64,000 nt of DNA from Oscillospiraceae bacterium (GTDB lineage Bacteria; Bacillota; Clostridia; Oscillospirales; CAG-272), in assembly GCA_015064445.1 (NCBI GenBank), contig SVSE01000001.1:344924-408923 (forward strand). The letters run 5' to 3'. The position numbers and the translations under genes are program-made. Positions 40,185-64,000 of the stretch are shown one piece after another. Every line of letters starts with the position of its first letter. Positions within the stretch are counted from its first letter, which is position 1. The notes beneath the pieces were generated by a model. The model was not told the origin of the DNA and did no database searches. It saw only the letters and a program-made list of their open reading frames with translations.

Positions 40185-40242
40185 AATATCACCACCTTTT
40201 CTATTTTACCATAATATAGACATTCTTTCAATATAAAAAGAA

Positions 40243-40268
40243 AAAAAGACCTCATTTGAGGTCTTTTT
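40243..40268. repeat. 26-bp perfect palindrome (12-TT-12), terminator-like; copy 1
   Basis: AAAAAGACCTCA-TT-TGAGGTCTTTTT. Overlaps the stop of ORF 40252-40773. Confidence 0.7.
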
Positions 40269-40773
40269 GGATTGAGATTATTTTTTGAAGCTTGTTTATC
40301 AAGCCTTTATATGCATAGATTTCCACCTCGAAATCATCTCCAACAATCACGACACGTGGAGGCACAATATATTTTCTTCGTGCATATTCCATCTCAAATT
40401 TAATTCCCAAATAACGAAACTCTGTAATGTCAGAATAATTTACGCTTCCGTTTGTCCTAACACGACGCATTTCCTTGCGTTTTTCATTTGCAAGAAAGTT
40501 AATCTGAGAGTTGAAAAAATATAATTTATCCTCCCCTATGATATATGATATTTTTCGACAAGCTATCAATAAAGCAACAGGCAACGCCATCCAAACAACA
40601 ATAAGAAGTCCGATAATTACACCTCGCCCTTCTCTTGGTGGAACACTTGCAGAGGTAACTATGGCTAAAATTAAAAATGGTATCGAAAAAATCGCTGAAA
40701 TGCTAAAAGAGGGAGAACGATGCTTTTCTCCATGAACGTTTTTAGGGTTTAAATTTTTATCAACTACAAGCAT
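40252..40773 (-). CDS. hypothetical 2-TM membrane protein
   Basis: ATG with GGTGGTG RBS, two hydrophobic helices, own promoter. No recognisable domain. Confidence 0.5.
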   Translation of the reverse strand: MLVVDKNLNPKNVHGEKHRSPSFSISAIFSIPFLILAIVTSASVPPREGRGVIIGLLIVVWMALPVALLIACRKISYIIGEDKLYFFNSQINFLANEKRKEMRRVRTNGSVNYSDITEFRYLGIKFEMEYARRKYIVPPRVVIVGDDFEVEIYAYKGLINKLQKIISIQKDLK

Positions 40774-40823: not shown

Positions 40824-40914
40824 CGCGTTTTTCAAGGTTGATATTTTGTGATGGCACCGAAGATGGAACCATATCTTTGAAAAAGATTTGTTCTCGCCTT
40901 TGGTGGTCCAAGAA

Positions 40915-40940
40915 AAAAAGACCTCAAATGAGGTCTTTTT
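40915..40940. repeat. 26-bp perfect palindrome (12-AA-12), terminator-like; copy 2, at the GC-content jump
   Basis: AAAAAGACCTCA-AA-TGAGGTCTTTTT, 73 nt downstream of the last cargo gene. Confidence 0.7.
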
Positions 40941-41013
40941 TCTTGCGAAAGACCGCGCAAACGGTGCGTAAACGAGTTAAGAAAAGTGATGTGATGCGTA
41001 AAATGTCGCCACT

Positions 41014-42495
41014 TTACACGTATCCTACCTTCGATACGCCGATTACGCCTCTGCGCAGAAATGTTATCTCGATCTGCTCCGGTGTGAATTGCTCTGGAGT
41101 GAATTGCGCGAATTCAAACTGCTCGGGCTGGAATTCCTTATATTCGAATTTCTCGTATTCGAAAATCTCAACGCCGATTTCCTTCAGCACCTCATCTGGC
41201 AGCGTGTAGTCCTGTTCTACCAAACCGAACATCGTGAAGCCAGAGTCAACGCAAAATGCAATGACAACCTGCTTACCAACGCTGTATGCGACGCTGCCAA
41301 CAACGGATCCTACCAGACTGCCTACCAAATATCCGAATACGGGTATTTCGATAAACGCCTGCGATATACCGCCGCCTATCAATGCGCACGCTGCAACGAA
41401 AGCGTCTCTTGTAAGTTCGTCCGCAAATTCGCGTCCTGTCTTTTTGCCTCGCGCTATCTGTATAGCGTTGCAAATGGCATTAACCGCGACAACTGCGATT
41501 GCTGCAACCACGTGCGGATTGAAGTCCTTCGCTGCTTCTCCGAGCAATCCTGATTTACAAAATCCCACTGCTGCTGCCGATATTGAGCCGACAAGGAATC
41601 CCTTTGCTGCGCCTGAAACGGCCGCTACGCCGGTTGCCTTAACCTGCTCGATATCCAATTCGCCTGTCTCGATTAAGTATTGTATCGTTTTTATAATTTC
41701 TGGTGTCGCTTTTAATACCGCCGATATAACCGCTGCGGTCATACCCGCCTTCATTGATTTATTGAAAACGTCTTTGAGCTTCACCCACTGTTCTGTGGTC
41801 AATCCCCATTTTTCTGGATTGAACTTTCCATCACGCAATTCGACCGCCATCTCTTTTGAGCCGGCACGGTTCATCTCCTGCGATCGTACACCGTCAGCCG
41901 TCTCTATGCGCTCTGTGCCGTGGTCGAGCATTCGCTGGTCGCGAGCAACGAGTTCCGGTCTTGCCTCGGCATTACCTGCCATTCGCTGAAACGCAAATTT
42001 GCGAGCTTCCTCTAATTGTCCTTCGGGAATAAGTGCGCCCATATCTCCGTACACAGGATCGTGTTCGCTGACCTGTCCAGAACGAATCAACTCCGCTGCA
42101 GTCGTCGAGCCGCTGCGCGCTGCTTCTCCGAAAGTGATATCCTGATACTTTGCGCTTAATTCTGCGGTGGCACCGTATTTTACTTGCCACATTTCGCCTG
42201 TCGATTCGCGGACAACGTCTGGTGTGCCAAAGCCCGTAGAACGTGGCACAACAAAATCGGGTGTCAGCCCTTTGACCGCTGCGTCTATGTTTGCAGTGTC
42301 AGCGTGCCAGAACTCCATCACGTCGCCACTCAAAAAATCAATGCCTTTGGCGCTGCCTTCGAACGCTTCCAAATGCTCGATGGCCTGTTCTATCTGTTCG
42401 CTGATACCGTCAACCCATATTCCAGTCAGTTCCGCTACTGCTGCTCCAGGTGCGTGATGCAAGTAGAATTCATATCCTTCTCTTACACCTGCCAT
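41014..42495 (-). CDS. hypothetical membrane protein: ~270-aa soluble N-domain, glycine-zipper TM region, C-terminal F-x-PEQ repeats (cargo gene 12)
   Basis: GGGGAG RBS. Gly/Ala-zipper helices (GVAAVSGAAKGFLVGSISAAAVGF, GYLVGSLVGSVVGSVAYSVG). PDVV...WQVKYG stretch. 3-nt gap to the upstream gene. Confidence 0.6.
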   Translation of the reverse strand: MAGVREGYEFYLHHAPGAAVAELTGIWVDGISEQIEQAIEHLEAFEGSAKGIDFLSGDVMEFWHADTANIDAAVKGLTPDFVVPRSTGFGTPDVVRESTGEMWQVKYGATAELSAKYQDITFGEAARSGSTTAAELIRSGQVSEHDPVYGDMGALIPEGQLEEARKFAFQRMAGNAEARPELVARDQRMLDHGTERIETADGVRSQEMNRAGSKEMAVELRDGKFNPEKWGLTTEQWVKLKDVFNKSMKAGMTAAVISAVLKATPEIIKTIQYLIETGELDIEQVKATGVAAVSGAAKGFLVGSISAAAVGFCKSGLLGEAAKDFNPHVVAAIAVVAVNAICNAIQIARGKKTGREFADELTRDAFVAACALIGGGISQAFIEIPVFGYLVGSLVGSVVGSVAYSVGKQVVIAFCVDSGFTMFGLVEQDYTLPDEVLKEIGVEIFEYEKFEYKEFQPEQFEFAQFTPEQFTPEQIEITFLRRGVIGVSKVGYV

Positions 42496-42498
42496 ATT

Positions 42499-43050
42499 TT
42501 ACTCCCCAAGGAACGCCGTCAGCCCGTCCATGTACATTATTGTTGCCAGCAAAGTATATTGCTGCTTTTCCGCGTCTTTGCTGCGGAATATATCACCGAC
42601 GCGATTATACATTCCAACGAAGAAATTCTTTTCATTCGGGCTGTATTGCATATCGAATTTTTTCTCAAAGTGCTTTGAGTATTGTTCGCAGAGTTCTTGG
42701 AATCGAGCCATATTATCTTTGTTAAGCGACGCTGCGTCTACGTACATAAACGCCTGCGTACCAAGCCAGCCGTAATGCATGCCTGCCTCGCAGAAGGTAT
42801 CTGCAACATTTTCACGCATCGTTTTTGCAGTGCGGCTGTTGCCGATGAAAAGAACGTACTGCGCAGACGACAGTTTCGGTCTGTTGTTTGCGTATTCTTT
42901 TTCACTCCAAATATTCGCATCCAGCTCGCCATCTTTGGTGCCTGTCTGCGCGCCATCTGTATCATCATTGCCACTAATCATTTGCAAAAGATAATTTGCC
43001 GTCGCTTCTGTGGCTTTATCGTAAACTATAATAAGTTTTTTCTTCACCAT
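42499..43050 (-). CDS. hypothetical cytoplasmic alpha/beta protein, possibly divergent TIR/DUF1863-like (cargo gene 11)
   Basis: GGGAGGG RBS. LIIVYD...IWSEKEY...YVLFIGNSRTAKTMRENV pattern. No P-loop. Confidence 0.55.
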   Translation of the reverse strand: MVKKKLIIVYDKATEATANYLLQMISGNDDTDGAQTGTKDGELDANIWSEKEYANNRPKLSSAQYVLFIGNSRTAKTMRENVADTFCEAGMHYGWLGTQAFMYVDAASLNKDNMARFQELCEQYSKHFEKKFDMQYSPNEKNFFVGMYNRVGDIFRSKDAEKQQYTLLATIMYMDGLTAFLGE

Positions 43051-43065
43051 ATCGGTTGCCCTCCC

Positions 43066-44079
43066 TTAAAGCACTGTCGCGAGTGCTTTTGCTACCTCGC
43101 TCCTGATATTGTCGTTTTTGTATGCGTACCAAATCAGATGGTCAAGTTCGTGATTATTCAACACGCCGACCTTGTCACGAAGTGCGCTGAATATTGTATA
43201 AAATTCTATGTAGCTGAGTTCTTCAAAGTTTTTCCCAAACCACAATTTTTTGTCGATTTTGTAATATGCGAGATAATACGGCATAATTGCGCGCACCACG
43301 GAATCGTTGATTGTATATGCGCAGCCGCCGTACAGCCACTCATTTAAGTAGCGGCACATTTTGCTTGCCAAGCTCTTATCTCTGCGGCTGTTATTATCAA
43401 CCAAATGCTGCAACAGAGCATCGACAAGGTATTCGTCTCCTGCCGCTATTCTTTCGAGAAATTTATTGGCGGGATCCGCGCAATATTCCGCGAGAAGTGT
43501 CATCGTTTCTTTCGATGTTCTTGTAGAGTTTTCCGTTGCGATTCGGTTTATAATATCGTAATACGCTTTTGCGGAGTAATCACCAGCATTGAAGTATTGC
43601 TCCATGATGGCTTTACCTTTTGACTGATACGCTGGGTCTACAGCTATGCACGCTTCTACGATATCCGAATTGTGCTTGTTGAGACAAACCATCAAGAAAT
43701 TGTCGGTTTCTAAATCAACGAGGTTGTGCGGTACTGTTAACAGCAGCTCCTCATCGAAAGATTTCGGCACTGTTCTGTGCTGCATGCGGTTCGCTGCGGC
43801 GGTTTGCTTGTTTGTTACAACAGTGATGCCGCGCTTCGTAAATTCAACCCACCTTTCCTGCAGGTTAATTGCGCTGACTACATATCCTGCGTCGAGCCAT
43901 CCTTTTTGAAACGATGTAACGTGAATCGTCGTGCAGTTCGCCCATGCGGGTCTATCAACGTATGCCGAATTAGGAAGCGTTATAATATTATTCAGATCAT
44001 CGAATGTAAAATGCACTGTATCTGTACCATGCTCCTGCAGCCATGCTGTTAGAGCGGCGTATTTACTAATTCGTGCCAT
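43066..44079 (-). CDS. hypothetical protein with DUF7662-like N-terminal module and helical C-terminal domain (cargo gene 10)
   Basis: KYAALTAWLQ...VHFTFDDLNNII.LPNSA...RPAWAN...WLDAGYVV...VEFTK. C-terminus contains SLASKMCRYL...YTINDSVV. AGGAGG RBS. Confidence 0.55.
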   Translation of the reverse strand: MARISKYAALTAWLQEHGTDTVHFTFDDLNNIITLPNSAYVDRPAWANCTTIHVTSFQKGWLDAGYVVSAINLQERWVEFTKRGITVVTNKQTAAANRMQHRTVPKSFDEELLLTVPHNLVDLETDNFLMVCLNKHNSDIVEACIAVDPAYQSKGKAIMEQYFNAGDYSAKAYYDIINRIATENSTRTSKETMTLLAEYCADPANKFLERIAAGDEYLVDALLQHLVDNNSRRDKSLASKMCRYLNEWLYGGCAYTINDSVVRAIMPYYLAYYKIDKKLWFGKNFEELSYIEFYTIFSALRDKVGVLNNHELDHLIWYAYKNDNIRSEVAKALATVL

Positions 44080-44287
44080 GCTTTGCCTCCTTTATTTTAC
44101 GGCGTACTTCCTGATAACGCGCCTTTGTCGCTTCGTATTTTGCTTGCGCTTCAGCGAGCTTTTCTTCTCGTGTTTTACGCGGTTTTACTTTTTGTTTTTT
44201 CGGTCTGTTAAAGAGCCAAACGAAAAGAGCAGCCAGACACACGGTGTCTGCTAATTCCTTTATACAATCGCAGTCGTGCTTTTTCAT
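44066..44287 (-). CDS. small membrane-anchored basic coiled-coil protein (cargo gene 9)
   Basis: GAGGAG RBS. Hydrophobic VCLAALFVWLF followed by a Lys/Arg/Glu-rich helix. 14-nt overlap with the next gene. Confidence 0.5.
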   Translation of the reverse strand: MKKHDCDCIKELADTVCLAALFVWLFNRPKKQKVKPRKTREEKLAEAQAKYEATKARYQEVRRKIKEAKHGTN

Positions 44288-44394
44288 CTCTGCTGCTCCT
44301 CTTATTATAACATATTTTTGCGATAATTTCTATCCGTATATGGCACTTCGTGGGGTTATTTTCGTGTTTTCGCTATTTTTATGCAAAGCAATCG

Positions 44395-44910
44395 TCACAG
44401 AAACGCTTTTTCAAGGTCTATATCCAAACCGAACTCTACCAAATCCGCATCACGAACAAGTAATTCACTCTTTATGATATCGGCAATTTCATAATAGGCA
44501 AGCTTACGGCCGTTTTGAAAATCGTCTTTGCTTTCATTAGCGTCGTCGATTGATTCAAACGCGCGCTCAAGCACCCTCGCTATTATGTACTTATAAGCGT
44601 CAATCGACATAGTATCATACTTTTTAAATTCTACCGTAGGACGCTCTGGCGTAGCCCATTCTGCCCACGCGTAATACGTCGACCACTCATCTGACACATT
44701 ATCCTCGTGCCACTCTTTTTCAAAATCAGCGCTTTTATTTGCGGGAATCAACCACCCCATCAAATCTTCGCCTTCATATTCGTCGTTTTCAAAATCGCGG
44801 CCATCGCCAGCGTCAAGATAATAAACGCAGCCTTGCTGCTGGGCAGTCTCTTGTACGATTTCAAAGTATTTGATAAATTTTTCGCTTTCATTAGTTTTTA
44901 ATCCCAGCAT
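44395..44910 (-). CDS. hypothetical acidic cytoplasmic protein (cargo gene 8)
   Basis: ATG with RBS. Asp/Glu-rich. No recognisable motif. Confidence 0.5.
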   Translation of the reverse strand: MLGLKTNESEKFIKYFEIVQETAQQQGCVYYLDAGDGRDFENDEYEGEDLMGWLIPANKSADFEKEWHEDNVSDEWSTYYAWAEWATPERPTVEFKKYDTMSIDAYKYIIARVLERAFESIDDANESKDDFQNGRKLAYYEIADIIKSELLVRDADLVEFGLDIDLEKAFL

Positions 44911-44966
44911 ACCATCACCGCCTTATCTTATTGAATAGTCCTTTTTTATCACCTTGCATTTTGTAT

Positions 44967-45170
44967 TTATTTTTTGAATATGTCCCAAATGCTGAACGAC
45001 GTTTTATTGTAAACCTTGTTATACGCCGCTTTCTTCGGGCTTTTTATCCATCCAACGCCTTTTTTACCGTATCCAGGTATCAGCGCCTTCTTAATGCTGC
45101 GTTTCGCCCGTCCAGTTGTCCTTGCGCGCAAAGAGCGTTTCAGCGAGGGCGTTCTCAATCCAAATTTCAT
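44967..45170 (-). CDS. small highly basic protein (cargo gene 7)
   Basis: GGTGG RBS. 67 aa, dominated by Lys/Arg (GLRTPSLKRSLRARTTGRAKRSIKKAL). Confidence 0.5.
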   Translation of the reverse strand: MKFGLRTPSLKRSLRARTTGRAKRSIKKALIPGYGKKGVGWIKSPKKAAYNKVYNKTSFSIWDIFKK

Positions 45171-45184
45171 TACTTACCACCTTT

Positions 45185-45331
45185 TTATCCGCTGCACTGA
45201 CCGAGCAGCGTGAGAAGTGCGATTATTATTATAACCACCCAAAATCCGCCGGAACAGCCCATTCCGCCGCCTCCGCTTCCTCCGCCACCGCTGGTGCTTT
45301 TGAAAGCGTGAAAATCATTTAAGTCTGGCAT
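45185..45331 (-). CDS. unlisted 48-aa Gly-rich single-TM miniprotein (cargo gene 6)
   Basis: My own translation is MPDLNDFHAFKSTSGGGGSGGGGMGCSGGFWVVIIIIALLTLLGQCSG. AAGGAG RBS 8 nt upstream. It fills the gap between its neighbours exactly. Confidence 0.45.
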   Translation of the reverse strand: MPDLNDFHAFKSTSGGGGSGGGGMGCSGGFWVVIIIIALLTLLGQCSG

Positions 45332-45343
45332 GGTCTTTGCTCC

Positions 45344-45658
45344 TTATATGAAACTGACGCCCATGCTTGCCAAGCTGATGACGGTGCCGATCAACGAAAC
45401 GACGAGGTAAAGCACCTTGCCGCCACGCGCTCCAAACCAAATGCCGAATCCTGATGCCACCAACATAATTGCGCCTGTGATAAAGTACGGTGATGTCAGG
45501 TATTCTTCCACCATATACTTTACGCACTCCCAGAGCCACGGGAAGAACGCTACCAGTGTCTGCCAGATGACTTCCCACATTGCTCCGAGTGCGCTCCAGC
45601 CGCACACTGCAAGCACCAGCGCAGAAATTGCGCCGAGTTTAACTAATGTTTTTGTCAA
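45344..45658 (-). CDS. small 3-TM membrane protein (cargo gene 5)
   Basis: TTG start preceded by AGGAGG at 6-nt spacing. Three hydrophobic helices. Confidence 0.55.
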   Translation of the reverse strand: MTKTLVKLGAISALVLAVCGWSALGAMWEVIWQTLVAFFPWLWECVKYMVEEYLTSPYFITGAIMLVASGFGIWFGARGGKVLYLVVSLIGTVISLASMGVSFI

Positions 45659-45671
45659 TTAAATCCTCCTG

Positions 45672-46361
45672 TTATTTTTTATCGTATGTTATAGTAATCT
45701 TTTTGCATTGAATTTTTATGTAGCCAATATCGAAAATCAGCTGCGTTGCATCGTGACGTGCTGGATAGCAATTAAAATCCTCAATCCACGTACACTCTGG
45801 ATCTATCGACCGCGCTGTGAATTCTATCACGTCTTCGAATACGAAAGTCGCAAAGATACCATCATACTCTAACCGCAGCGTAGCCGTTTCCTTATCCTGT
45901 GTAACCGCTATAAATTTACTGTCGTGGAATTGAAAATCTGACGAATCATCCCATCCTGTAATGTACGTACAGGATTTTTCATAATTGCTCGAACAGCAGT
46001 TGTCAAATTTGTACGCGTAATAGTCATACAAATCTTGCGCCTGCTTATACTCCTCATCGGTCGGCTTCTCATCCGTATCCATAGCGGCTTTATATGCCTC
46101 CAAGCACGGTTTAAGGTAGCGATTCAACACTGTATAAAGCTGCTCATGGTGCTGATACTCCCACGCCATCATATGCAAAATGCGTCCGTACCACAGCTGG
46201 CGCTTTTCTTTTGCGTTCTCCGCGTGGTAGTATGCAAACCAGAGATGATAATATCCTTTTTTATCATCCCTTGACCAATATCCTGTGCCTTTAGGGCACC
46301 ACAGACAAAACCGCGCTGTGTTGTAGCTATCAATAATGTCTTGCCATGATACGTCTGTCAT
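45672..46361 (-). CDS. hypothetical protein, DUF4085-like C-terminal half (cargo gene 4)
   Basis: Start set to ATG 46361 (AGGAGA RBS). C-terminal FHDSKFIAV...LRLEY...FVFEDVIEF...TWIEDFNCY...IKIQCKKITI pattern. Confidence 0.5.
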   Translation of the reverse strand: MTDVSWQDIIDSYNTARFCLWCPKGTGYWSRDDKKGYYHLWFAYYHAENAKEKRQLWYGRILHMMAWEYQHHEQLYTVLNRYLKPCLEAYKAAMDTDEKPTDEEYKQAQDLYDYYAYKFDNCCSSNYEKSCTYITGWDDSSDFQFHDSKFIAVTQDKETATLRLEYDGIFATFVFEDVIEFTARSIDPECTWIEDFNCYPARHDATQLIFDIGYIKIQCKKITITYDKK

Positions 46362-46378
46362 TGTTTTTCTCCTGTTTA

Positions 46379-47014
46379 TTAGCTCAACGCCTTCTTTGCC
46401 CACTCGATATCAACCACAAAGTCTGCGTCGCCTACTGCATCAATATTTGCTGCAAATTTCTGACGAATTTTGTCGTAAAGGTCGTTAGGAACGCCGCAGC
46501 TCAACGGCTCATCTGTCATAAATTGCAACGACATCTCTCCGTCCTGATCAATCATTACGTACACCGCTGTAATTTCTTTATCTGGGAACTGCTTTGCTGC
46601 ATTTGCCAGATACATCAATTTAATAATTTCGATTACGCGATCGTCCAGCTCGTTGTTAAATATAATGGCTTTTTCGCGCAGAGCGTTTTGGTCGCATACT
46701 ACACGCTTCTTATAATCATCCATCTTTACGGGCAGCTTTTCTTCCATTGCAATCAGTTCTTCTATCGTGGATTCAACCGCCTCGGGACGCACGAAATATA
46801 CCATCGCCTTATTCGTCATATCGTGATACAGAATATCGTATGAAAGATTGCTCTGGTGTCCGCATTTTTCACAATGGAAGCGGAACAATGTACCGTCAAG
46901 CAGCTGCTGCTTTGCGTCGGGATCTATATCACCGTTTAAGCTATCCCAAATTGTAATCTCGCATTCCTGCCCGCATTCAGGGCATTTGATTTTTTCAATA
47001 TGTTCCTTTGACAT
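46379..47014 (-). CDS. CpXC-domain protein (cargo gene 3)
   Basis: Two CPxC-type knuckles (KCPECGQ, HCEKCGH) at the N-terminus. AAGGAGA RBS. Confidence 0.6.
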   Translation of the reverse strand: MSKEHIEKIKCPECGQECEITIWDSLNGDIDPDAKQQLLDGTLFRFHCEKCGHQSNLSYDILYHDMTNKAMVYFVRPEAVESTIEELIAMEEKLPVKMDDYKKRVVCDQNALREKAIIFNNELDDRVIEIIKLMYLANAAKQFPDKEITAVYVMIDQDGEMSLQFMTDEPLSCGVPNDLYDKIRQKFAANIDAVGDADFVVDIEWAKKALS

Positions 47015-47026
47015 TTCTTTTCTCCT

Positions 47027-47848
47027 TTACAATGTAATGCTGCCTGCTTCTTTACCGTCGATGGCAAAGTTGAACAACGTACCCTTGCACACAGCTGCAA
47101 AGTAACCGGTCTTTGCGTACTCCGCTGCATAGTTCTTTTCGATAATTTCCAGTGTCTCGCGCAGCTGAAGCATTGCTGCGAATTCGTGCTTGCAGTTGTA
47201 GCTGCAGAAGCAACCGCAAATTAGCTTGCTTATCATACCACCTGCGTATTCGAATTCTACCTCGTATGCTTCGGTGCCTTCTACGATCGCATATCCCTTT
47301 GTACCATCAATACAGATATAGCGCACGCGATTTTCTATGTAGTATTCGTGTCCGCGCTCTGCGATTTCGCTGCTTATCTTCATGTCCTTGAGATTGTCAA
47401 GTGCGAATGCGCCTTCGTCGCTGGTGCCGCTTACATACTCCTCATCCTCTGCGTCCGGTGCCTTAAACCATGTGCGCGCCTTGCACTGCGGCAACGCCTC
47501 ACGGTCGAATGTTACGAAATGTGATCCTGCTAAATGGAACGTACCGTGTACGTCGGTGTCCACCAGAGCGATGACGCGCTGATACTTTGACAGCTTAATC
47601 TTAAAATTGTATGCCACATCTACAACGCGGCCGCGCAAGCCTTCCAGCTTACCGTCAACATAAACGAGGTCTCCACGACGCAAATCGAACTTATCGTTGT
47701 AATAAGCTAACGTCATGTTGCGCGTCGGGAAATGAATTTGCACCACAGACTTTTTCGCTTCGTTGCTGCGCGGTGCCGTAATGACGGGCGCAGATTCAAT
47801 TGTGTCTTCTTCAGATATTGCAGCTGTAAAGCCTATCTTGTACTTCAT
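47027..47848 (-). CDS. SWIM zinc-finger protein (cargo gene 2)
   Basis: C-x-C-x(n)-C-x-H signature in LICGCFCSYNCKHEFAAML preceded by GYAIVEGTEAYEVEF. N-terminal beta-rich domain. Confidence 0.6.
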   Translation of the reverse strand: MKYKIGFTAAISEEDTIESAPVITAPRSNEAKKSVVQIHFPTRNMTLAYYNDKFDLRRGDLVYVDGKLEGLRGRVVDVAYNFKIKLSKYQRVIALVDTDVHGTFHLAGSHFVTFDREALPQCKARTWFKAPDAEDEEYVSGTSDEGAFALDNLKDMKISSEIAERGHEYYIENRVRYICIDGTKGYAIVEGTEAYEVEFEYAGGMISKLICGCFCSYNCKHEFAAMLQLRETLEIIEKNYAAEYAKTGYFAAVCKGTLFNFAIDGKEAGSITL

Positions 47849-48975
47849 TATTCCTCACCTTCAATTCTTGATTTCATTTTTTGTACGATATCGAATATCT
47901 CGCGGTCAAGCACGAACGGCTCGCTGAATGCGTTAAGCACGATGCCTGCCACGTTCTTCTCGTTATTTATTGCCAGCGACAATGCTTCAAGGAAATGCTT
48001 TTCCACTTTCGAGAAGCCCTGTCCGTATTCTCCCATCTCCTCAGCACTTGAGAATATCGGGAAGTAGAAATTATCACCATTCTGCAGGATATCCGGTACC
48101 ATACGAATACTTTCTTCGCTGGTGATCGTCTTTCCGACCATTGCAGACGGATCGTCGCCTGCTTCTTCAAGCATTTTCTGCAGGGCTTCCATATCCATAT
48201 CGCCCATAATCGCGTTACAAGGAATCCATACCCAGCTATCGCGCAGTAATTCCAGTACCTCGAAGAAGTTCGGCTCGTTACGCTCTGCATTGAACGCGCT
48301 GACTGCCGCTTTGAGCATTGTGCCGTCAGCCAAGTCTTCTGCGGTGAGTTTCTTGCTCGGTGTCATATCGGAATAACAGATAACGTGTTTGTCCTCAGTC
48401 TCCTGTACGAAGAAGGCAATCTTTTCGCCTGCGTGATATCCGAAGTTCTGGTTCGGCTCGTTCAGAAGCGTCGCCATTATAAAGTGATCGCCCAGACCGA
48501 TTATCCTCGCCCAGCATCTTTCCGGCTGCAAGCCTTCACGTGTCAGGAATACCGCCACGTCATCGGGATAATGCAGATGTCTGCTCTCATCGAGGAAGCG
48601 CATTTCGCGGGATTTTTCTACCTCCTCGTCAGCGTCGTATCCCTTCAGCATTTCAATCTTTTTGGCATATCTTTCTTTGAAATCATCTGCATCCTTGAAG
48701 TAGGCGAATTGTTCATCCTCGATTGCGTCCGCGCGGATAAAGAAACGTGTGTCATCCGACGGAGCAAAGAAACGATATCCGTCATCGCTTTTTTCGCCTG
48801 CTGCCAAGACCTCTAATGTCAGTCCCGCTTGGGTATCTATATAACCGTACACCAGCATGCAGTTGGCTTTGTCGATATTAGGATATTCCTTCATGCATTC
48901 CTTAAATCTTTTATTCAGCGGGAACGCGCAAAAATTGTGATATAAAGCTCTGAAACCAGTCTCTTTTAACGTCAT
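47848..48975 (-). CDS. two-domain protein: DUF2314-like middle region + SseB-like C-terminal domain (cargo gene 1)
   Basis: Start set to ATG 48975 (GGAGG RBS). ERCWARIIGLGDHFIMATLLNEPNQNFGYHAGEKIAFF. VWIPCN...GDNFYFPIFSSAEEM...GIVLNAFSEPFVLD. The tracked N-terminal 139 codons overlap the recombinase and the terminator. Confidence 0.6.
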   Translation of the reverse strand: MTLKETGFRALYHNFCAFPLNKRFKECMKEYPNIDKANCMLVYGYIDTQAGLTLEVLAAGEKSDDGYRFFAPSDDTRFFIRADAIEDEQFAYFKDADDFKERYAKKIEMLKGYDADEEVEKSREMRFLDESRHLHYPDDVAVFLTREGLQPERCWARIIGLGDHFIMATLLNEPNQNFGYHAGEKIAFFVQETEDKHVICYSDMTPSKKLTAEDLADGTMLKAAVSAFNAERNEPNFFEVLELLRDSWVWIPCNAIMGDMDMEALQKMLEEAGDDPSAMVGKTITSEESIRMVPDILQNGDNFYFPIFSSAEEMGEYGQGFSKVEKHFLEALSLAINNEKNVAGIVLNAFSEPFVLDREIFDIVQKMKSRIEGEE

Positions 48976-49006
48976 TATATAGCTACCTCCAGTAATGATT
49001 TTTAGT

Positions 49007-49050
49007 GCGATTATATTATAACACAAAAAATCGCATTTGTATATACCTTT
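49007..49050 (-). promoter_or_regulatory. promoter of the cargo operon
   Basis: Minus strand TGtTATAAT extended -10 (49015-49023), embraced by the inverted repeat GCGATT/AATCGC. The -35 is weak (ATACAA). Confidence 0.4.
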
Positions 49051-49104
49051 TGCACAGTTTTCAACCCGCTTTTGAAAAGGTGAACGATTTTGTCCTTCTT
49101 TAAC

Positions 49105-49143
49105 GCAAAAAATGCCCTCGACACCGTTTCTGATGCCGAGGGC
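49105..49143 (-). terminator. terminator after the recombinase genes
   Basis: GCCCTCG-16 nt-CGAGGGC hairpin followed by T6 on the minus strand. Confidence 0.6.
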
Positions 49144-49148
49144 TACTC

Positions 49149-50774
49149 TTATTCTTCGTATTTCTGTTCGATGCTCGCGCCGCATTTGAAGGTTATCTCC
49201 ATATAGTCGTCGTACATCGTGATGTGATCGACAAGCGCTTTTATGATGACCGCGTCGAGCGATACCATCGTTTGTGCGTTCTTTGTGTGTTCTGCGAAGG
49301 TGTTCAGCCATGCGCGTATCTCTGCGTAGCGGTTGTCTGTCGCTCGCAATTCCGCCTGCTGCTTTTCGAGCAATTGCATGTGATTCTTGCATCCTTGCAT
49401 CCTTGATTTATACTCGTCTTCGCTTATCTCCATGCGCTGCTTCGCCTTATGCAGTTCCAGCACCGCCTGCTGCAGTTCGATTATTTCCGACTCGATGCGC
49501 TCCAGCGCCGCTGCGTTCTCTGGCTGCAACGCCAGCTCTGCGCCTTCGCTTATTGCGTCTATGATTTCGTCCGCGTCCTCCGCCATTGCGCGTATCGCTG
49601 CGAGGTAGGTGCGCTCTATGACATCCTCATTTATGTGGTGCGAGTCGCATTCGCTCCTGCCGTTTACGATTCTGTTGCTGCATCCGAAGGCGGGTACCAC
49701 CTTGCCGCTGCCGACTCTGCGCGTATGACGTCTGAGCTTTGCTCCGCATTTTCCGCATATCAGCATACCGCTGAAGGTGTACTTGCTGGTGAATTTGCTG
49801 CTGCCGACCGCGTCGTTCTTTGCTTCCTTACGGCGTTCAAGTTCCGCCTTTGCCAGTTCGAACAGGTCTTTCTCGATGATTGCAGGGTGTGTGCCTTCTG
49901 CATAGAACATCGGCATCTGTCCTTCGTTCTTTACTCTGTGCTTCGAGAGGACGTCCGGCTTGAAGGTTTTTCCGAGTATCGCGTCGCCCGTGTATTTTTC
50001 GTTTGTCAGGATACTCTCGATTACGCTGTGCTGCCACCTCTGCCTGCCGAGCTTCGTCGGCACGCCGTCCGCCTCCAGACCTCTGCATATGCGGGTTATC
50101 GATATGCCCGATACGAATTCGCGGTATATGCGCCTCACAATTTGCGCCTCCGCCTCATTGATTTCGTAGATTATATGACCGTCTTCGCCTTTGCCAACCC
50201 GCGTATATCCGAGCATCAGACCAGTGTTTATAACCACCTCGCCGTTTTTCCGCTTCTTGGCATACGCCCATTTTATATTACTGGACATTGTACGTGATTC
50301 CTGCTCCGCCATCGCTGCCAGAATGGTGATTAGTACCTCGCCGCCAGGGGTGAGCGTGTCGATGTTTTCGCTCTCGAAGTATATGCCGATGCCGAGTTCC
50401 TTCAGTTCGCGTATGTACGTGAGCGCGTCGACCGTGTTTCTGGCAAATCGGCTGATGGATTTTACGAGGATTTTCTTTATTTTGCCTGCGCGGCAGTCCG
50501 CGATCATACGCATGAAGTCCGGTCGCTTTTCTGCTCGCGTTCCTGTGATACCAGGGTCTGCGTATATGCCGACGAAGTTCCATTCGCTCTTGGATTGTAT
50601 CAGTGCCGTGTAATGTGCCACCTGTCTTTCGAAGGAGTCTTCCTGTTCTTCGCGCTCCGTCGATACGCGGGCGTATGCTGCCACGGGTGTTTTTTCTATG
50701 ATTTCTTCTGCGTTTATATTGAGCAGCATTGCTCTCGGTATCTCGCGCACGACGCGCCTTGTTGCTGTTGCCAT
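49149..50774 (-). CDS. large serine recombinase (second of tandem pair)
   Basis: Resolvase catalytic domain (AAYARVSTEREEQEDSFERQ), recombinase domain, Cys-rich zinc ribbon (CGKCGAKL...CSNR), C-terminal coiled coil. Confidence 0.9.
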   Translation of the reverse strand: MATATRRVVREIPRAMLLNINAEEIIEKTPVAAYARVSTEREEQEDSFERQVAHYTALIQSKSEWNFVGIYADPGITGTRAEKRPDFMRMIADCRAGKIKKILVKSISRFARNTVDALTYIRELKELGIGIYFESENIDTLTPGGEVLITILAAMAEQESRTMSSNIKWAYAKKRKNGEVVINTGLMLGYTRVGKGEDGHIIYEINEAEAQIVRRIYREFVSGISITRICRGLEADGVPTKLGRQRWQHSVIESILTNEKYTGDAILGKTFKPDVLSKHRVKNEGQMPMFYAEGTHPAIIEKDLFELAKAELERRKEAKNDAVGSSKFTSKYTFSGMLICGKCGAKLRRHTRRVGSGKVVPAFGCSNRIVNGRSECDSHHINEDVIERTYLAAIRAMAEDADEIIDAISEGAELALQPENAAALERIESEIIELQQAVLELHKAKQRMEISEDEYKSRMQGCKNHMQLLEKQQAELRATDNRYAEIRAWLNTFAEHTKNAQTMVSLDAVIIKALVDHITMYDDYMEITFKCGASIEQKYEE

Positions 50775-50775
50775 C

Positions 50776-52236
50776 TTATGCCTCCTTCTTATTCCAGCCG
50801 ACCTTGTTTCCAGGTTGACCGTTACTGTATTTTCTGCTGATTTCCACCCCGTTGTAGAAGGTGAAGGTTATCACGCCTTTGTGGATTTTTATGCGTGTTA
50901 TGAATTTCTCGACCTTTTCGTCGCTGTATTCCGTTATGAGTGTGAAGTCGCTTTCGCGTACTACCTTTGTCCGCTGTTCTGCGTACCGCGCGTTCAGTCC
51001 CGCTATCTGCGCTTTGATGCGCTTTTGCTCCTCGCGGAAGGCGCTCTCTGGTATGAGCCGCTGCATACGCAGTTCGGAGAGTTCGCGTTCCTCGCGCTTG
51101 AGTCGCTCTATCGCCCGCTGCAGTATGATTGCCGACTCGCCCTGCGGCCGCTTTGTTACGAATTCGTTGTATGCCTCGACGAATTTTTCCTTCAGCACGC
51201 TGTCTTTTATCGAGGTGCAGTCGCAGCGCTTGACGCCGTACCGCAGCTTCGCGCCGCATACCCAGATGTCCGATGCCCACTTTTTGCCGCTGTTATTGAC
51301 TTTATGCTGGAAGTGTGTCCCGCACTGCCCGCACTCGATGAGCGAAGTTAGCGCGTATATCGGTCTCGGCACTCCGACCGTTTTCTTGTTTGTCCGCTGG
51401 ACTCTGACCTCCTGCGCTTTGTACCATAGTTCTTTGCTGACGATGCCTTCGTGCGTGTCTTCCATGTAATACCGCTTGCCGTATGTGCCGTCCATATTAT
51501 TGTGCTTGATGCCTAAGTGGTATACCGATTTGCCCATCATCGCGTCGCCCATGTATTTTTCGTTTGTCAGGATTGCGAGTATCACCTGATGCTGCCATAT
51601 GTTACCGCCCGATGCCCGATATCCTTCGTCATTCAGCGTGTCCGCTATTGCGCAGCAGCCCGCGCCGCCTACGTACATCTCGTATATGCGCCGTATTACC
51701 GCTGCCTCCTCCGGTACTATCTCCAGCGTATTGTCCTTCGTCATGCGGTATCCGTATATCTTGCTGCCGATGCTGATCCAGCCGTTTTCGTATCGGTGCC
51801 GTATCGACCAGCGCATTCTATCCGAGTCGACCTGCAGGTCGTTTTCTGCGACCGTCGCTGCGATCGTGAGGAATATCTCGCTTGTCGGCTGGAAGGTGCT
51901 GATGTTTTCGTTCTCGAATATGACCTCGATGCCGATATCGCGTAACTCTCGCACCGCCTCCAGCAGCTGCACTGTGTTGCGGGCGAAGCGGGATACGCTT
52001 TTGACGTATATCACATCGAATTTATGCTGCCTCGCGTCTTCCATCATTACGAGGAATTGCGGGCGTTTGTGTATGCTGCTGCCGCTGATGCCTCTGTCCG
52101 CGTATATGCCTGTGAGTTCGATATTCGGGTCACCTTCGAAGCGATCCTGCCAGTACTGCTCTTGGAACTCGTAGCTGTGCAGCTGCGCCGAGCTTGCCGT
52201 AGATACTCTGATGTATGCCACTGCGCGTTTTTTCAT
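50776..52236 (-). CDS. large serine recombinase (first of tandem pair)
   Basis: AVAYIRVSTASSAQLHSYEFQ catalytic motif, recombinase domain, zinc ribbon (CGQCGTHF...VCGAKLRYGVKRC). Start set to ATG 52236 (AAAGGAGAAAA RBS). Confidence 0.9.
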   Translation of the reverse strand: MKKRAVAYIRVSTASSAQLHSYEFQEQYWQDRFEGDPNIELTGIYADRGISGSSIHKRPQFLVMMEDARQHKFDVIYVKSVSRFARNTVQLLEAVRELRDIGIEVIFENENISTFQPTSEIFLTIAATVAENDLQVDSDRMRWSIRHRYENGWISIGSKIYGYRMTKDNTLEIVPEEAAVIRRIYEMYVGGAGCCAIADTLNDEGYRASGGNIWQHQVILAILTNEKYMGDAMMGKSVYHLGIKHNNMDGTYGKRYYMEDTHEGIVSKELWYKAQEVRVQRTNKKTVGVPRPIYALTSLIECGQCGTHFQHKVNNSGKKWASDIWVCGAKLRYGVKRCDCTSIKDSVLKEKFVEAYNEFVTKRPQGESAIILQRAIERLKREERELSELRMQRLIPESAFREEQKRIKAQIAGLNARYAEQRTKVVRESDFTLITEYSDEKVEKFITRIKIHKGVITFTFYNGVEISRKYSNGQPGNKVGWNKKEA

Positions 52237-52366
52237 TGCTTTTTCTCCTTTCATAGTTCTGGGTTTGAACCTGCGTAAAATTTTTGTCCCCGCCTTTTTA
52301 AGGCAGGGACAAAGATACCAGAATAATTGCAGAAAGTCCAGCCCAAAACCGAAGAAACACAAAGAA

Positions 52367-52507
52367 TTAGCAATTATTTTTTCGCAATTTTTCCTCTGTT
52401 TTCATAGCGATTTGCTCGCGTTCTGCAGTTGTGATAAGACCCTTTACCCACATGGACTGGATAATGGCCTGTGCGAATGCAATGCGTGCTTCTTTTTGTT
52501 TCTTCAT
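52367..52507 (-). CDS. unlisted 46-aa helical protein upstream of the recombinases
   Basis: My own translation is MKKQKEARIAFAQAIIQSMWVKGLITTAEREQIAMKTEEKLRKNNC. AAGGAGG RBS. Confidence 0.4.
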   Translation of the reverse strand: MKKQKEARIAFAQAIIQSMWVKGLITTAEREQIAMKTEEKLRKNNC

Positions 52508-52517
52508 GGGTGCCTCC

Positions 52518-52685
52518 TTATGCCACGGGCAATACTAAAAGCTGCCCTTCGGTGAGGTACGCCGTCTGAAGTTTATTGAGACGCACGATTTCTGTATAGC
52601 GAGAGACACGCCCGAGGTACTTTTTAGCGATACCCCAGAGCGTGTCTCCCTCTGACACCTTATAAATTTTCTTAATGGCTATCAT
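52518..52685 (-). CDS. unlisted 55-aa stand-alone LysM-domain protein
   Basis: My own translation is MIAIKKIYKVSEGDTLWGIAKKYLGRVSRYTEIVRLNKLQTAYLTEGQLLVLPVA. This fits the LysM consensus (Y.V..GDTLW.IA..Y...N.L....L..GQ.L.LP). Confidence 0.7.
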   Translation of the reverse strand: MIAIKKIYKVSEGDTLWGIAKKYLGRVSRYTEIVRLNKLQTAYLTEGQLLVLPVA

Positions 52686-52986
52686 CTGTTTTCACCTCGG
52701 TCTTACTCTTACCGACAAGCTGCTTGACTGCCTGATTGGTACCTGTCGCGGAAAGACCGCTGGCTGCGCCGAGAATGATTGCAACAAGAACGTTCTGTGT
52801 CTCCATGACGCCAGGCACGATGTAGAATGCGATCGCGCCGCAGATTGCGCCGAGCGCGCAGGATACAAGCGGAATAAAGCGCTTGAATTTTTCGTCGCCA
52901 CCGACTGCGGTCTTGACGATATCGATGATTGTGTAAACGATTGCCGCGATTGCGGGGATTGTTGCAAATTCAGTAAAAAATTCCAT
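52672..52986 (-). CDS. putative phage holin (3 TM)
   Basis: Three hydrophobic helices and a charged C-terminus. Position after the tail fibre genes. Confidence 0.55.
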   Translation of the reverse strand: MEFFTEFATIPAIAAIVYTIIDIVKTAVGGDEKFKRFIPLVSCALGAICGAIAFYIVPGVMETQNVLVAIILGAASGLSATGTNQAVKQLVGKSKTEVKTDDSH

Positions 52987-53001
52987 AGTTTTTTCCTCCT
53001 G

Positions 53002-53259
53002 TTATTTATGCGCCTGTTTGTTCAGGTGCATTTCGATTTGTTTGATTGCGATGGTGACGGGACCGTCGCAGCCTTGCTCCTGCAAGCCCTTGAGGCATGC
53101 AAGAACGCCCTGTGTGAGTAGCGTCTGTTCCTCTTTGATTGCCTTGATGTCCTTGTCCTGCTTCTCCTGCTTGAGATACCATCTGTAAATGGCGAAAACA
53201 AGACCGAAAATCACGCCCAAAGCGGTGATGACGCCTGCTACCGTGCTGATAATCTCCAT
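53002..53259 (-). CDS. small N-terminally anchored membrane protein (holin/antiholin-like or unknown)
   Basis: Single TM (VAGVITALGVIFGLVFAIY) plus a charged helical tail. Confidence 0.4.
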   Translation of the reverse strand: MEIISTVAGVITALGVIFGLVFAIYRWYLKQEKQDKDIKAIKEEQTLLTQGVLACLKGLQEQGCDGPVTIAIKQIEMHLNKQAHK

Positions 53260-63996: not shown

Positions 63997-64000
63997 AATA

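Follow-up and report, generated by a model that had tools for sequence, protein, structure and literature searches.

The array consists of 12 open reading frames (ORFs), all co-directional on the minus strand, at positions 41014-48975 of the window, the whole 64,000-nucleotide stretch of DNA that was analysed. All 12 ORFs named in a preliminary description of this DNA were recovered, and all carry a Shine-Dalgarno sequence. Packing is tight. From c01 to c12 the junctions measure -1, +12, +17, +13, +12, +14, +56, +107, -14, +15 and +3 nt, where the +17 value assumes that c04 starts at the ATG at 46361. The only larger gaps lie at 44911-44966 and 44288-44394, exactly as first described. The features are as follows.

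49149-52362, minus strand: twin large serine recombinases, the conserved flank of the cargo slot
49104-49143, minus strand: intrinsic terminator 3' of the recombinase gene, with a 12-bp stem (8 GC pairs) at 49143-49114
49015-49043, minus strand: promoter-like site P1, TATACA-17-TG-TATAAT (consensus scan, 10 of 12 matches plus extended -10)
47848-48975, minus strand: c01, SseB family (Pfam PF07179, E = 1.9e-9), 375 aa, acidic
47027-47848, minus strand: c02, 273 aa, with a small barrel-like domain at the N-terminus and a SWIM-type zinc finger at the C-terminus
46379-47014, minus strand: c03, CpXC zinc-ribbon protein (Pfam PF14353, E = 2e-37), 211 aa
45672-46361, minus strand: c04, 229 aa (243 aa from an upstream GTG)
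45344-45658, minus strand: c05, membrane protein, 104 aa, about three hydrophobic helices by hydropathy
45185-45331, minus strand: c06, 48 aa, a Gly-rich N-terminus and one hydrophobic helix
44967-45170, minus strand: c07, 67 aa, very basic (pI 11.5)
44395-44910, minus strand: c08, 171 aa, very acidic (pI 4.2)
44304-44332, minus strand: promoter-like site P2, TAGAAA-17-TG-TATAAT, within the 107-nt gap ahead of c09
44066-44287, minus strand: c09, 73 aa, one hydrophobic helix and a basic coiled-coil tail, overlapping c10 by 14 nt
43066-44079, minus strand: c10, 337 aa, an N-terminal DUF7662 (Pfam PF24698, E = 9e-9) and a C-terminal domain
42499-43050, minus strand: c11, 183 aa, a predicted alpha/beta domain and a C-terminal helix
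41014-42495, minus strand: c12, 493 aa
40943-41013, minus strand: terminal 71 nt of the element, a recombination-site arm whose end is identical at five different insertion sites
40913-40942, no strand assigned: hairpin of a bidirectional host terminator, directly next to the element end but outside the element, which would terminate array transcripts

The recombinases are encoded by ORFs at 49149-50774 (541 aa) and 50776-52362 (528 aa). Tape measure, Dit, tail, holin and LysM genes were also found in the window, bearing out the earlier identification of twin serine recombinases in a prophage. The carrier of the array is a temperate siphovirus-type prophage of a gut Clostridia-type bacterium. 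At about 41000, GC content goes up from about 0.35-0.40 to about 0.45-0.50. The end of the element is at 40943. The element's last 34 nt, CTCGTTTACGCACCGTTTGCGCGGTCTTTCGCAA, lie 3' of c12 at five insertion sites with differing host flanks (the window, L030, L031, L034 and L013), and the array block thus travels with the element to at least five sites. At three of these host sites (the window, L030 and L034) the recombinases, the array and the 34-nt end form one contiguous stretch with 100% identity, and at a fourth (L031) they are contiguous in a diverged form. The palindromic terminator at 40915-40940 had been taken as the end of the array. This hairpin is host DNA, because the same element end is followed by different hairpins at the four other insertion sites.

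The strong terminator described between the recombinases and the array was found 3' of the recombinase stop, where the stem is followed by ATTTTTTG. The extended -10 promoter ahead of the array was matched as P1, a consensus prediction, and a GGAGG ribosome-binding site lies 3' of it at about 48985. In addition to this promoter, a second extended -10 match, P2, precedes c09; both sites share TGTTATAAT. Promoters and terminators are consensus matches, and the number of sites in the promoter scan did not exceed that in shuffled sequence (24 versus 19 ± 4.6).

Compared with diverged copies, c01, c02, c03, c05, c07 and c12 have dN/dS values of 0.02-0.14 and are therefore real genes; the array genes are under purifying selection. 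Values are 0.03 for c01 and c07, 0.04 for c05 (90% identical to its L013 copy) and 0.09 for c12. The weakest gene call is c06, on which gene callers are split (48 aa, 29 aa or no call); its L013 copy differs by an in-frame 24-nt indel. Hydropathy gives three small membrane proteins (c05, c06 and c09) instead of the five counted earlier, with c07 a very basic soluble peptide, and hydrophobic helices are also present in the large c12.

The proteins were searched against Pfam (E <= 0.1), NCBIfam (E <= 0.01) and PADLOC models. Among the domain types proposed earlier, SseB (c01), CpXC (c03) and DUF7662 (c10) are confirmed by Pfam profile and SWIM by motif, while DUF2314 (Imm34), DUF4085 and SWIM were not detected by Pfam at this threshold. 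The preliminary description stands for the 12 genes, the terminator, the promoter and the recombinases, and is corrected on the end terminator, the membrane protein count and some of the domains.

In c01, the SseB N-terminal domain occupies residues 221-359, and residues 1-220 have no family assignment. Homologues of c01 number at least 921, at 58-63% identity. Its relatives on ICEs and conjugative elements adjoin BREX and Type I RM genes; they lie beside BREX-WYL in one context and directly upstream of HsdM-HsdS-HsdR in another. The SWIM motif of c02, CxCx5CxH, is invariant in 10 homologues, and the protein matches PADLOC PDC-S62 (1e-5) and the DpdE N-terminal model (4e-3). Without the rest of the array, the c02 gene is present in 11 phage contigs of IMG/VR and also in L002 and L010. 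Since it is so regular in this phage lineage, c02 could serve the phage itself. In several uncharacterised phage protein families (phrog_10934, 3374, 29766 and 4721; E = 1e-27 to 1e-31), the N-terminal domain is the counterpart of c07. The C-terminal domain of c10 (about residues 105-337) is found elsewhere as a stand-alone protein of about 240 aa, and the c10 family (357 representatives) has relatives in other mobile elements as well. No family match was obtained for c04 or c08 in Pfam, NCBIfam, PADLOC or phrog profiles.

The last two genes form a conserved pair, intact in seven independent contexts. In these contexts, the gene directly preceding the c12 homologue is homologous to c11 (E = 1e-13 to 1e-100), with gaps of 3-22 nt between the two. 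In six of the seven, the pair lies beside defence genes (restriction, BREX-type, Kiwa, McrBC, GmrSD). Examples include HsdR/GmrSD, Kiwa/AbiU2, McrBC and HsdRMS/ThsB_TIR/GmrSD/WYL/AAA_21, and on the phage NatCom_9287 methyltransferases and a restriction enzyme adjoin the pair. c12 has at least 728 homologues. In its AF2 model (pLDDT 79), residues 1-240 form a confident soluble domain, residues 240-418 form five long Gly/Ala-rich helices, two or three of them hydrophobic, and a disordered tail of acidic/aromatic repeats is present. The c11 model has a pLDDT of 75. No structural match was found for c11 in PDB or for c12 in PDB or BFVD. Members of the c01 family and of the c12 family are found repeatedly in defence islands.

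Related phages keep the flanks but vary in slot content. In twelve loci the recombinase pair recB-recA is retained at 57-69% identity, in several of them together with genes for lysis and tail, but what follows downstream is unrelated; across relatives, conservation of the flanking genes (recombinase, lysis, tail) is 57-85%. Cargo size in related twin-recombinase phages ranges from 2 to 10 kb. All twelve genes are missing from L003, L006, L008, L009, L011, L012 and L016, and none is conserved across the twin-recombinase relatives. These comparisons support the earlier reading of the array as moron cargo at the recombinase-proximal prophage end, in a slot that is hypervariable.

The array is a mosaic in which each cassette can be exchanged independently (c01; c02; c03-c07; c08; c09-c10; c11-c12), not one co-evolved operon. 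In L013, c01-c03, c05-c07 and c11-c12 are kept at 82%, 81% and 71.5% nucleotide identity, a Sel1-repeat protein stands in place of c04, c08 and c09 are missing, a DUF7662 gene has moved to the end, and the array lies behind a truncated recombinase. In L031, c03-c12 are 100% identical to the window, c01 is 78% and the recombinases are 85% identical (backbone summarised as 78-85%). A breakpoint lies inside recA in L032. The slot of the sister phage L044 holds a WHH/colicin-DNase toxin and a SUKH-1 immunity gene, so that it can host interbacterial-conflict modules.

We consider it probable that these observations have a joint explanation, in which the region between the recombinases and 40943 is a moron cargo arm with a cassette mosaic that mainly protects the lysogen. 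The best reading of the array is a lysogen-expressed conflict cargo with at least one candidate membrane-acting anti-phage system. Transcription in the lysogen would start from P1 and P2, two sigma-70-type extended -10 promoters. Because of the terminator at 49143-49114, it would be independent of the recombinases, and transcripts would stop at whichever host terminator adjoins the landing site. The main job of the array would be protection against other phages and mobile elements. c11 may be the cytosolic alpha/beta member, with a sensing or restraining role, and c12 a membrane-inserting effector with glycine-zipper-like helices. As a pair they may work like lambda RexA/RexB, as a two-component module for exclusion or abortive infection; this mechanism is an analogy, since structural relatives of c11 and c12 were not found. 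c01 could act as a single-gene factor of the defence-island type, and an envelope block to superinfection may come from the small membrane proteins c05, c06 and c09. A defence function of the array is suggested by genomic association only, through c11-c12 and c01 homologues in defence islands and the PDC-M09B match of c12.

Genes that overcome host immunity on entry, by anti-restriction or anti-defence, are an unlikely alternative content. The 58-63% identity of c01 across phages, ICEs and conjugative elements is typical of mobile-element anti-defence genes, the extreme acidity of c08 resembles that of DNA-mimic inhibitors, and the proteins are mostly small and without enzymatic domains. However, the array sits at the end of the prophage, past the late and lysis genes, has a terminator ahead of it and carries housekeeping-type promoters, a setting typical of lysogenic-conversion genes and not of early anti-defence genes. 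In addition, c01 relatives are co-oriented within BREX and Type I RM clusters, c11-c12 relatives reside in chromosomal defence islands, and c12, a large membrane protein, is unlike known inhibitors.

One reading offered in the preliminary description is orphan immunity genes, a polyimmunity locus against polymorphic toxins of competitors (e.g., T7SS/LXG). Many small acidic cytoplasmic proteins (c01, c03, c04 and c08) with no toxin gene, the cassette-like swap at c04 and the toxin-immunity pair in L044 fit this idea. DUF7662 also occurs as 6-10 tandem copies within single proteins, and immunity domains such as SUKH are known in tandem copies (Zhang et al. 2012, PMC3482391). The reading nevertheless fails the profile test: no array protein matches an Imm, SUKH or other immunity family in Pfam, NCBIfam or PADLOC, and for 10 of the 12 proteins the negative result, which includes SuFu, holds at E <= 0.1 in Pfam and E <= 0.01 in NCBIfam. 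SseB, SWIM and CpXC are not named as immunity families by Zhang et al. 2012, and homologues of c01 and c11-c12 adjoin restriction, BREX and Kiwa genes, not toxin loci. We regard it as improbable. With at least three genes in defence-island families, the locus looks like a fairly ordinary phage "defence cargo" slot. Of the earlier interpretation, the hypervariable moron cargo and, by association, the anti-phage alternative are retained.

Phage life-cycle genes (recombination directionality factor, lysogeny control, replication or lysis accessory) are a still more doubtful identity. Such roles would suit c02, which in many relatives recurs next to genes for the recombinase and for lysis with a changing gene order, as well as the zinc-binding SWIM and CpXC modules, which could bind DNA or protein, and c10-like genes that adjoin a terminase gene (L085) or a serine recombinase gene (L084). 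On the other hand, the seven loci without any of the twelve genes speak against this, profile searches including Pfam and NCBIfam found no HTH, replication or known RDF families in the array, and c01 and c11-c12 also occur in non-phage chromosomal and conjugative contexts. That a separate island or remnant of another element abuts a prophage ending just past the recombinase gene is hardly credible: attachment sites of serine integrases are often immediately adjacent to the integrase gene, array GC (0.42-0.50) is somewhat below that of the phage body (0.49-0.55) and the L013 recombinase is truncated, but the contiguity at four host sites already contradicts it, and the L044 IMG/VR contig stops about 60 nt past its c12 homologue.

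The lysogen-protecting cargo reading can be compared with several known systems. Polyimmunity loci (Zhang et al. 2012, PMC3482391) likewise pack genes for small, unrelated and mostly acidic proteins tightly together and show replacement of cassettes, and the sister array in L044 holds a genuine WHH toxin and SUKH immunity pair; the window array differs in lacking immunity-family matches and in having homologues whose neighbours are anti-phage genes, not toxins. PDC-M09 is a PADLOC phage defence candidate, one of the PDCs defined by a guilt-by-embedding criterion, and as a candidate provides no mechanism (Payne et al. 2024, bioRxiv 10.1101/2024.01.29.577857). It is also a two-gene cassette. c12 matches PDC-M09B (E = 8e-10), as do its homologues (1e-4 to 6e-14 across five family members), and homologous c11-c12 pairs have Type I RM and GmrSD genes as neighbours, in line with guilt-by-embedding. 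In contrast, the match covers mainly the helical membrane region (c12 residues 243-406), and c11 does not match PDC-M09A at E <= 1.

Lambda RexA/RexB is a prophage-encoded two-component exclusion system. By analogy, c11-c12 is prophage-borne, presumably lysogen-expressed, and would combine a cytosolic protein with a multi-helix membrane protein. Neither sequence nor profile similarity to this system was found (no array protein has a RexA or RexB Pfam hit at E <= 0.1), RexB has no counterpart of the large soluble N-domain of c12 (240 residues), and in c11-c12 the partner gene comes first, followed by the membrane protein gene. Prophage moron and defence hotspots are known from P2/P4, from Firmicute prophages with virulence or exclusion genes between the lysis genes and attR, and from prophage-mediated defence in mycobacteriophages. 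Compared with these, the window array is unusually long (12 genes, 8 kb), lies distal to twin serine recombinases, consists almost entirely of uncharacterised families and uses a host terminator at each insertion site instead of its own transcript-ending terminator. It shares with them a hypervariable slot between conserved phage modules and the attachment site, its own promoter and a terminator, content from the defence-island gene pool, and cassettes swapped by recombination between related phages.

The array at 41014-48975 is best supported as a composite conflict cargo, predicted to be expressed in the lysogen, that sits in a hypervariable prophage slot. Judging from the gene neighbourhoods of their relatives, at least c11-c12 and c01 would have been drawn from the anti-phage defence-island gene pool. 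The slot is the cargo region between the twin large serine recombinase genes (here called recA and recB) and the physical end of the element at 40943. The array genes are numbered from c01 to c12, which lies at the element end.

50776-52362, minus strand, large serine recombinase, upstream of the array
49149-50774, minus strand, large serine recombinase, upstream of the array
49143-49114, minus strand, terminator (12-bp stem, 8 GC pairs) immediately 3' of the recombinase stop codon
49043-49015, minus strand, promoter match TATACA-17-TG-TATAAT from a consensus scan, after the terminator
47848-48975, minus strand, c01, 375 aa
47027-47848, minus strand, c02, 273 aa
46379-47014, minus strand, c03, 211 aa
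45672-46361, minus strand, c04, 229 aa (243 aa with an upstream GTG start)
45344-45658, minus strand, c05, 104 aa
45185-45331, minus strand, c06, 48 aa
44967-45170, minus strand, c07, 67 aa
44395-44910, minus strand, c08, 171 aa
44332-44304, minus strand, second promoter match with the same extended -10, TGTTATAAT, as the first, in the 107-nt gap before c09
44066-44287, minus strand, c09, 73 aa
43066-44079, minus strand, c10, 337 aa
42499-43050, minus strand, c11, 183 aa
41014-42495, minus strand, c12, 493 aa

The recomputed junctions from c01 to c12 are, in order, -1, +12, +17, +13, +12, +14, +56, +107, -14, +15, and +3 nt, in agreement with the twelve tightly packed co-directional ORFs and two larger gaps of the preliminary description. 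A Shine-Dalgarno sequence lies 5-10 nt 5' of all 12 ORFs, and a GGAGG site precedes the ATG of c01. Since dN/dS is 0.02-0.14 for c01, c02, c03, c05, c07, and c12 against the diverged copies in the related contigs L013 and L031, these six genes are genuinely protein-coding. The weakest gene call is c06, on which gene callers disagree. Both promoter matches are good ones, to the consensus only, and promoter sites are overall no more numerous than in shuffled sequence. From about 41000 the GC content is 0.42-0.55, up from 0.35-0.40 in the host.

Beyond the recombinases, the same strand carries a 46-aa ORF, a 55-aa LysM ORF, a holin, a tail fibre, tail proteins, Dit, and a 1232-aa tape measure protein. 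Because recombinases, lysis genes, and tail genes lie upstream, the array lies at the end of a prophage of siphovirus type, which continues past the edge of the window at 64000. Within 52367-53259, just the 55-aa LysM-only ORF and the 46-aa ORF lie between the holin (52672-52986) and the recombinases, and this stretch of the prophage shows no catalytic domain of an endolysin.

The same array was found in other contigs with differing downstream flanks by exact look-up of c12. In alignment, homology always ends after ...CTCGTTTACGCACCGTTTGCGCGGTCTTTCGCAA, which corresponds to window position 40943, and this identical element end lies 3' of c12 at five insertion sites. The host DNA past the end is different at each site and forms its own distinct terminator hairpin with a T-run within 0-4 nt. 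The element end and host hairpin lie at the following positions.

Window, 40913-40976
L030, 11520-11600
L031, 11520-11600
L034, 6842-6920
L013, 16309-16390

Since homology includes the array and stops at 40943, the array lies inside the mobile element. The palindromic terminator at 40915-40940, previously taken as the end of the array, thus belongs to host DNA beyond the element. The array itself lacks a terminator, and its transcription would be stopped by whichever host terminator adjoins the insertion. The element has moved recently, because three of the sites carry copies with 100% identity over 6.9-11.6 kb. These identical copies and the different hairpins at the five sites suggest that the serine recombinase pair targets multiple sites, with a preference for the base of a terminator hairpin, and is not tied to one fixed attB. 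The exact element-end motif was absent from the metagenome and viral collections searched, and no empty-site contig was found. Contigs that looked free of the prophage proved only to end where the assembly had broken within the k-mer overlap. Breaks in metagenome contigs fall precisely on the element end (ends of L032 and L033; starts of L021, L022, and L026; window 40943 and 41083), and these contigs overlap host-side contigs by 141 nt, the assembly k-mer; such breaks fit an element present at several sites in the same samples. On the host side, a low-GC gene at 40252-40773 encodes a membrane-like protein of 173 aa and has its own promoter match. It is bracketed by perfectly complementary 27-nt inverted hairpin copies (40242-40268 and 40915-40941) and may be a small cassette, or the terminators may simply be duplicated.

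Relatives of recA were scanned in one genome per species. They occur at 17 loci, 12 of which keep the recB-recA pair at 57-69% protein identity, and IMG/VR added 11 further loci. Lysis and tail genes are kept at 44-85% in several of the recB-recA relatives. The genes 3' of recA are unrelated among these elements. In L002 and L010 the cargo spans about 2 kb, comprising a 200-aa ORF together with c02 and small ORFs, and is followed by host genes, e.g., PfkB and an AMP-binding enzyme. The cargo is an AAA_25 ATPase and a third recombinase in L003 and L011, and an HTH/M78 peptidase in L009. The IMG/VR sister phage L044 carries a 9.5-kb, 11-gene array with c02 and, at the extreme end, a c11-c12-like pair. 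Also in L044 (11580-13012 and 13580-16633) are a 355-aa protein with a C-terminal WHH/colicin-DNase domain, directly followed by a SUKH-1 (SMI1_KNR4) immunity protein, as well as a MacB-like protein, a 330-aa ORF, and an ABC ATPase. Together these genes form a toxin-immunity module carried by a phage, possibly with a system for export.

Exchange of cassettes can be seen directly in relatives of the array. L013 keeps c01-c03 (82% nucleotide identity), c05-c07 (81%), and c11-c12 (71.5%), lacks c08-c09, has a Sel1-repeat protein in place of c04, and carries, after c12, a DUF7662 gene whose C-terminal domain is a different one. In L031 (1-11564 against window 52498-40932), c03-c12 are 100% identical, c02 is 94%, c01 is 78%, and the recombinases are 85% identical; this step indicates a recent recombination breakpoint between c02 and c03. 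Another breakpoint lies inside recA in L032 (position 1926, window 50570), joining the array to a different backbone with an amidase endolysin, a GerE-like gene, and a single recombinase. Unlike the stretch at 52367-53259, this backbone encodes an Amidase_2/Glucosaminidase protein of 432 aa. No near match in cultured phages came from a megablast of 40900-53000 against 50,697 phage records. The proposal of a hypervariable slot between conserved flanks is borne out: recombinases, lysis genes, and tail genes are kept while the cargo is unrelated, and sharp mosaic breakpoints occur in L031 and L032. Nor is the region a set of core early genes in the related phages compared, the pattern that the preliminary description had named as counting against it.

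Ten of the 12 proteins were scanned with Pfam (E <= 0.1) and NCBIfam (E <= 0.01); c06 and c09 were compared with PADLOC only. SseB (PF07179) covers residues 221-359 of c01 (E = 1.9e-9; 38.2 bits against a gathering cut-off of 21). CpXC (PF14353) covers residues 9-132 of c03 (E = 2e-37; 128 bits against 25.4), with CPEC and CEKC motifs visible, and DUF7662 (PF24698) covers residues 7-79 of c10 (E = 9e-9; 35.4 bits against 26). These three domains had been named from the sequence alone and stand. The SWIM finger of c02 is a putative one, recognised by motif: its CxCx5CxH is invariant in 10 homologues, down to 40% identity, with no Pfam SWIM match at E <= 0.1. DUF2314 (Imm34) and DUF4085 found no Pfam match at E <= 0.1 in the 10 proteins and are dropped. 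NCBIfam returned nothing beyond the Pfam results. PADLOC matches the C-terminus of c02 to the N-terminal region of PDC-S62 and DpdE, and PHROGs recognise c07 alone, as the N-terminal domain of several phage families annotated without function. Hydropathy marks c05, with about three helices, and c06 and c09, with one each, as small membrane proteins, and it gives 2-3 hydrophobic helices for c12. Strongly basic (pI 11.5) and without a hydrophobic helix, c07 is probably not a membrane protein; the small membrane proteins number three (c05, c06, and c09) instead of the five first counted. Strongly acidic proteins are c01, c03, and c08. A sequence search of solved structures with c01, c03, c04, c08, c10, and c12 gave nothing meaningful, and scans of IMG/VR recovered no close relative of c01, c03, c10, or c12. 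The literature found on 'CpXC' concerned only CPxC zinc-hook motifs, which are irrelevant to c03. For c03, c04, c05-c07, c08, and c09, the indications of function are those already given.

The c01 family has at least 921 members with 58-63% identity over the full length, named 'SseB family protein' at NCBI, and its members occur without c02 or c03 in other mobile elements. One follows BREX (PglZ, BrxL), an AAA ATPase, and a WYL protein on a Tn916-like ICE. Another, on a conjugative element, follows a WYL and a TPR protein and lies 6 nt 5' of HsdM-HsdS-HsdR; a third, on a serine-recombinase element, adjoins RlaP. These surroundings, too, are of the defence-island type. In many relatives of this phage c02 occurs alone, either beyond the recombinases or between these and the lysis genes. 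Since most twin-recombinase elements lack c02, it is accessory and patchily distributed; its candidacy as an essential recombination directionality factor was rejected on the same distribution.

The c10 protein has two domains, of which the C-terminal one (about residues 105-337) is usually a separate protein of about 240 aa elsewhere. DUF7662 is also paired with other C-terminal domains or repeated in 6-10 tandem copies in single proteins; P0299 (10 copies, E = 3e-117), P0332, P0383, and P0352 are such tandem proteins among c10 relatives. The neighbours of 26 metagenomic c10 relatives have no coherent theme and include unknown large proteins, a terminase with a C5-methylase, and a serine recombinase. 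An embedding of c10-like genes in Type I RM operons was rejected, because the large neighbours had no Pfam or PADLOC match or were terminase, C5-methylase, or recombinase.

The c12 family comprises at least 728 full-length proteins of about 500 aa, all from Clostridia and all unannotated. In every context examined, the c12 homologue is preceded, at a distance of 3-22 nt, by a homologue of c11 (E = 1e-13 to 1e-100). The pair closes the cargo arrays of L013 and L044, and pairs of this type adjoin known defence systems in L036, L040-43, L055, L062, and L063-66. In L036, HsdR, DUF3644, and GmrSD precede the pair, and an ADP-ribosylglycohydrolase and a serine recombinase follow it. The pair comes after HEPN_AbiU2 and KwaB-KwaA (Kiwa) in L040-43, after two DNA methyltransferases and a restriction endonuclease in phage NatCom_9287, and after McrBC and RlaP genes on the mobilisable element of L062. 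In L063-66 it is placed between HsdR-M-S, 8xMP/ThsB_TIR, and GmrSD on one side and WYL, an AAA_21 ATPase, and Fic on the other. No known defence system is adjacent to the window's own copy.

An array of orphan immunity genes (polyimmunity), as originally suggested, retains a minority of the probability, for some cassettes. The non-homologous WHH and SUKH pair in the same slot of L044 and the tandem DUF7662 proteins speak for it. In Pfam the window shows no toxin domain, as first noted. However, the profile search proposed for this idea found no immunity family (Imm1-74, SUKH, SuFu) in the 10 proteins scanned, and the neighbourhoods of c01 and c11-c12 homologues, with restriction, BREX, and Kiwa genes, contradict it. 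A counter-defence role may apply to c01 or c08. Action of the array genes in the phage life cycle is unlikely given their patchy distribution, and the shared end of the element contradicts the view of the array as a separate island.

Variable defence or moron slots beside integrases are already well known, and the array reveals no new kind of biology; its content is almost all uncharacterised families. One of the main ways in which gut bacteria acquire and trade genes for phage defence and interbacterial conflict is through the accessory slots of temperate phages. The locus is a precisely bounded, long, and recently mobile example, with 100% identical copies at several insertion sites. It nominates for defence screens the c11-c12 and SseB-like c01 families, which are abundant in gut Clostridia and recurrently lie beside restriction, BREX, and Kiwa genes.

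AlphaFold (pLDDT 79) models residues 1-240 of c12 confidently as a soluble domain, residues 240-418 as five long Gly/Ala-rich helices, and the tail of acidic/aromatic repeats as disordered. The helices include a GxxxG-type run at 388-400, whose glycines G388, G392, G396, and G400 do not vary within the family. At the C-terminus (about 445-493; 41014-41160), the short repeats FEYEKFEYKEFQPEQFEFAQFTPEQFTPEQ are followed by a basic beta-hairpin motif, FLRRGVIGVS, which is nearly invariant in the family, although the repeats are predicted to be disordered. The c11 model (pLDDT 75) shows an alpha/beta domain and a long C-terminal helix and rests on a shallow alignment, since the word-indexed homologue search gave 8 proteins only. 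Longer c11 homologues carry an additional hydrophobic segment. Foldseek of both models against PDB and BFVD gave nothing significant (best E 0.28, 0.014, and 0.22; TM <= 0.33); weak resemblances to the AhlB pore-forming toxin, a LydA-like holin, and a glycine-zipper protein are given no weight.

A bolder version of the defence-cargo reading is possible, if on balance doubtful. Here c11-c12 would be an uncharacterised two-gene anti-phage system of gut Clostridia, spread over temperate phages, ICEs, and chromosomal defence islands, in which a small alpha/beta partner controls a large membrane-inserting effector, of a fold without a solved relative, that kills or depolarises the infected cell. 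If c01 is a further defence factor, encoded by a single gene, the array would amount to a multi-system immune cassette carried by the phage and composed almost wholly of unknown families.

Among known systems, PADLOC's PDC-M09, a phage defence candidate with A and B components, is matched by c12 through its B component (PDC-M09B; E = 7.7e-10, residues 243-406) and by the L036 c12 homologue (6e-14, model positions 46-394 of 480). Neither c11 nor its L036 homologue has any PADLOC match at E <= 1, PDC-M09A included, and this leaves c11-c12 as a distant variant of PDC-M09 at most; the L040 c11 homologue has only a weak PtuA match (E = 0.011). The 145 'phage defence candidates' of PADLOC are defined by guilt by association (Payne et al. 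2024, 10.1101/2024.01.29.577857). The homologous c11-c12 pairs are likewise embedded among defence genes, and PDC-M09 is itself a candidate only. Searches of Pfam and PHROG gave no RexA/RexB homology, and the likeness to lambda RexAB is one of functional analogy: c11-c12 would act, as RexA/RexB do, as a two-component, membrane-acting exclusion or abortive-infection module.
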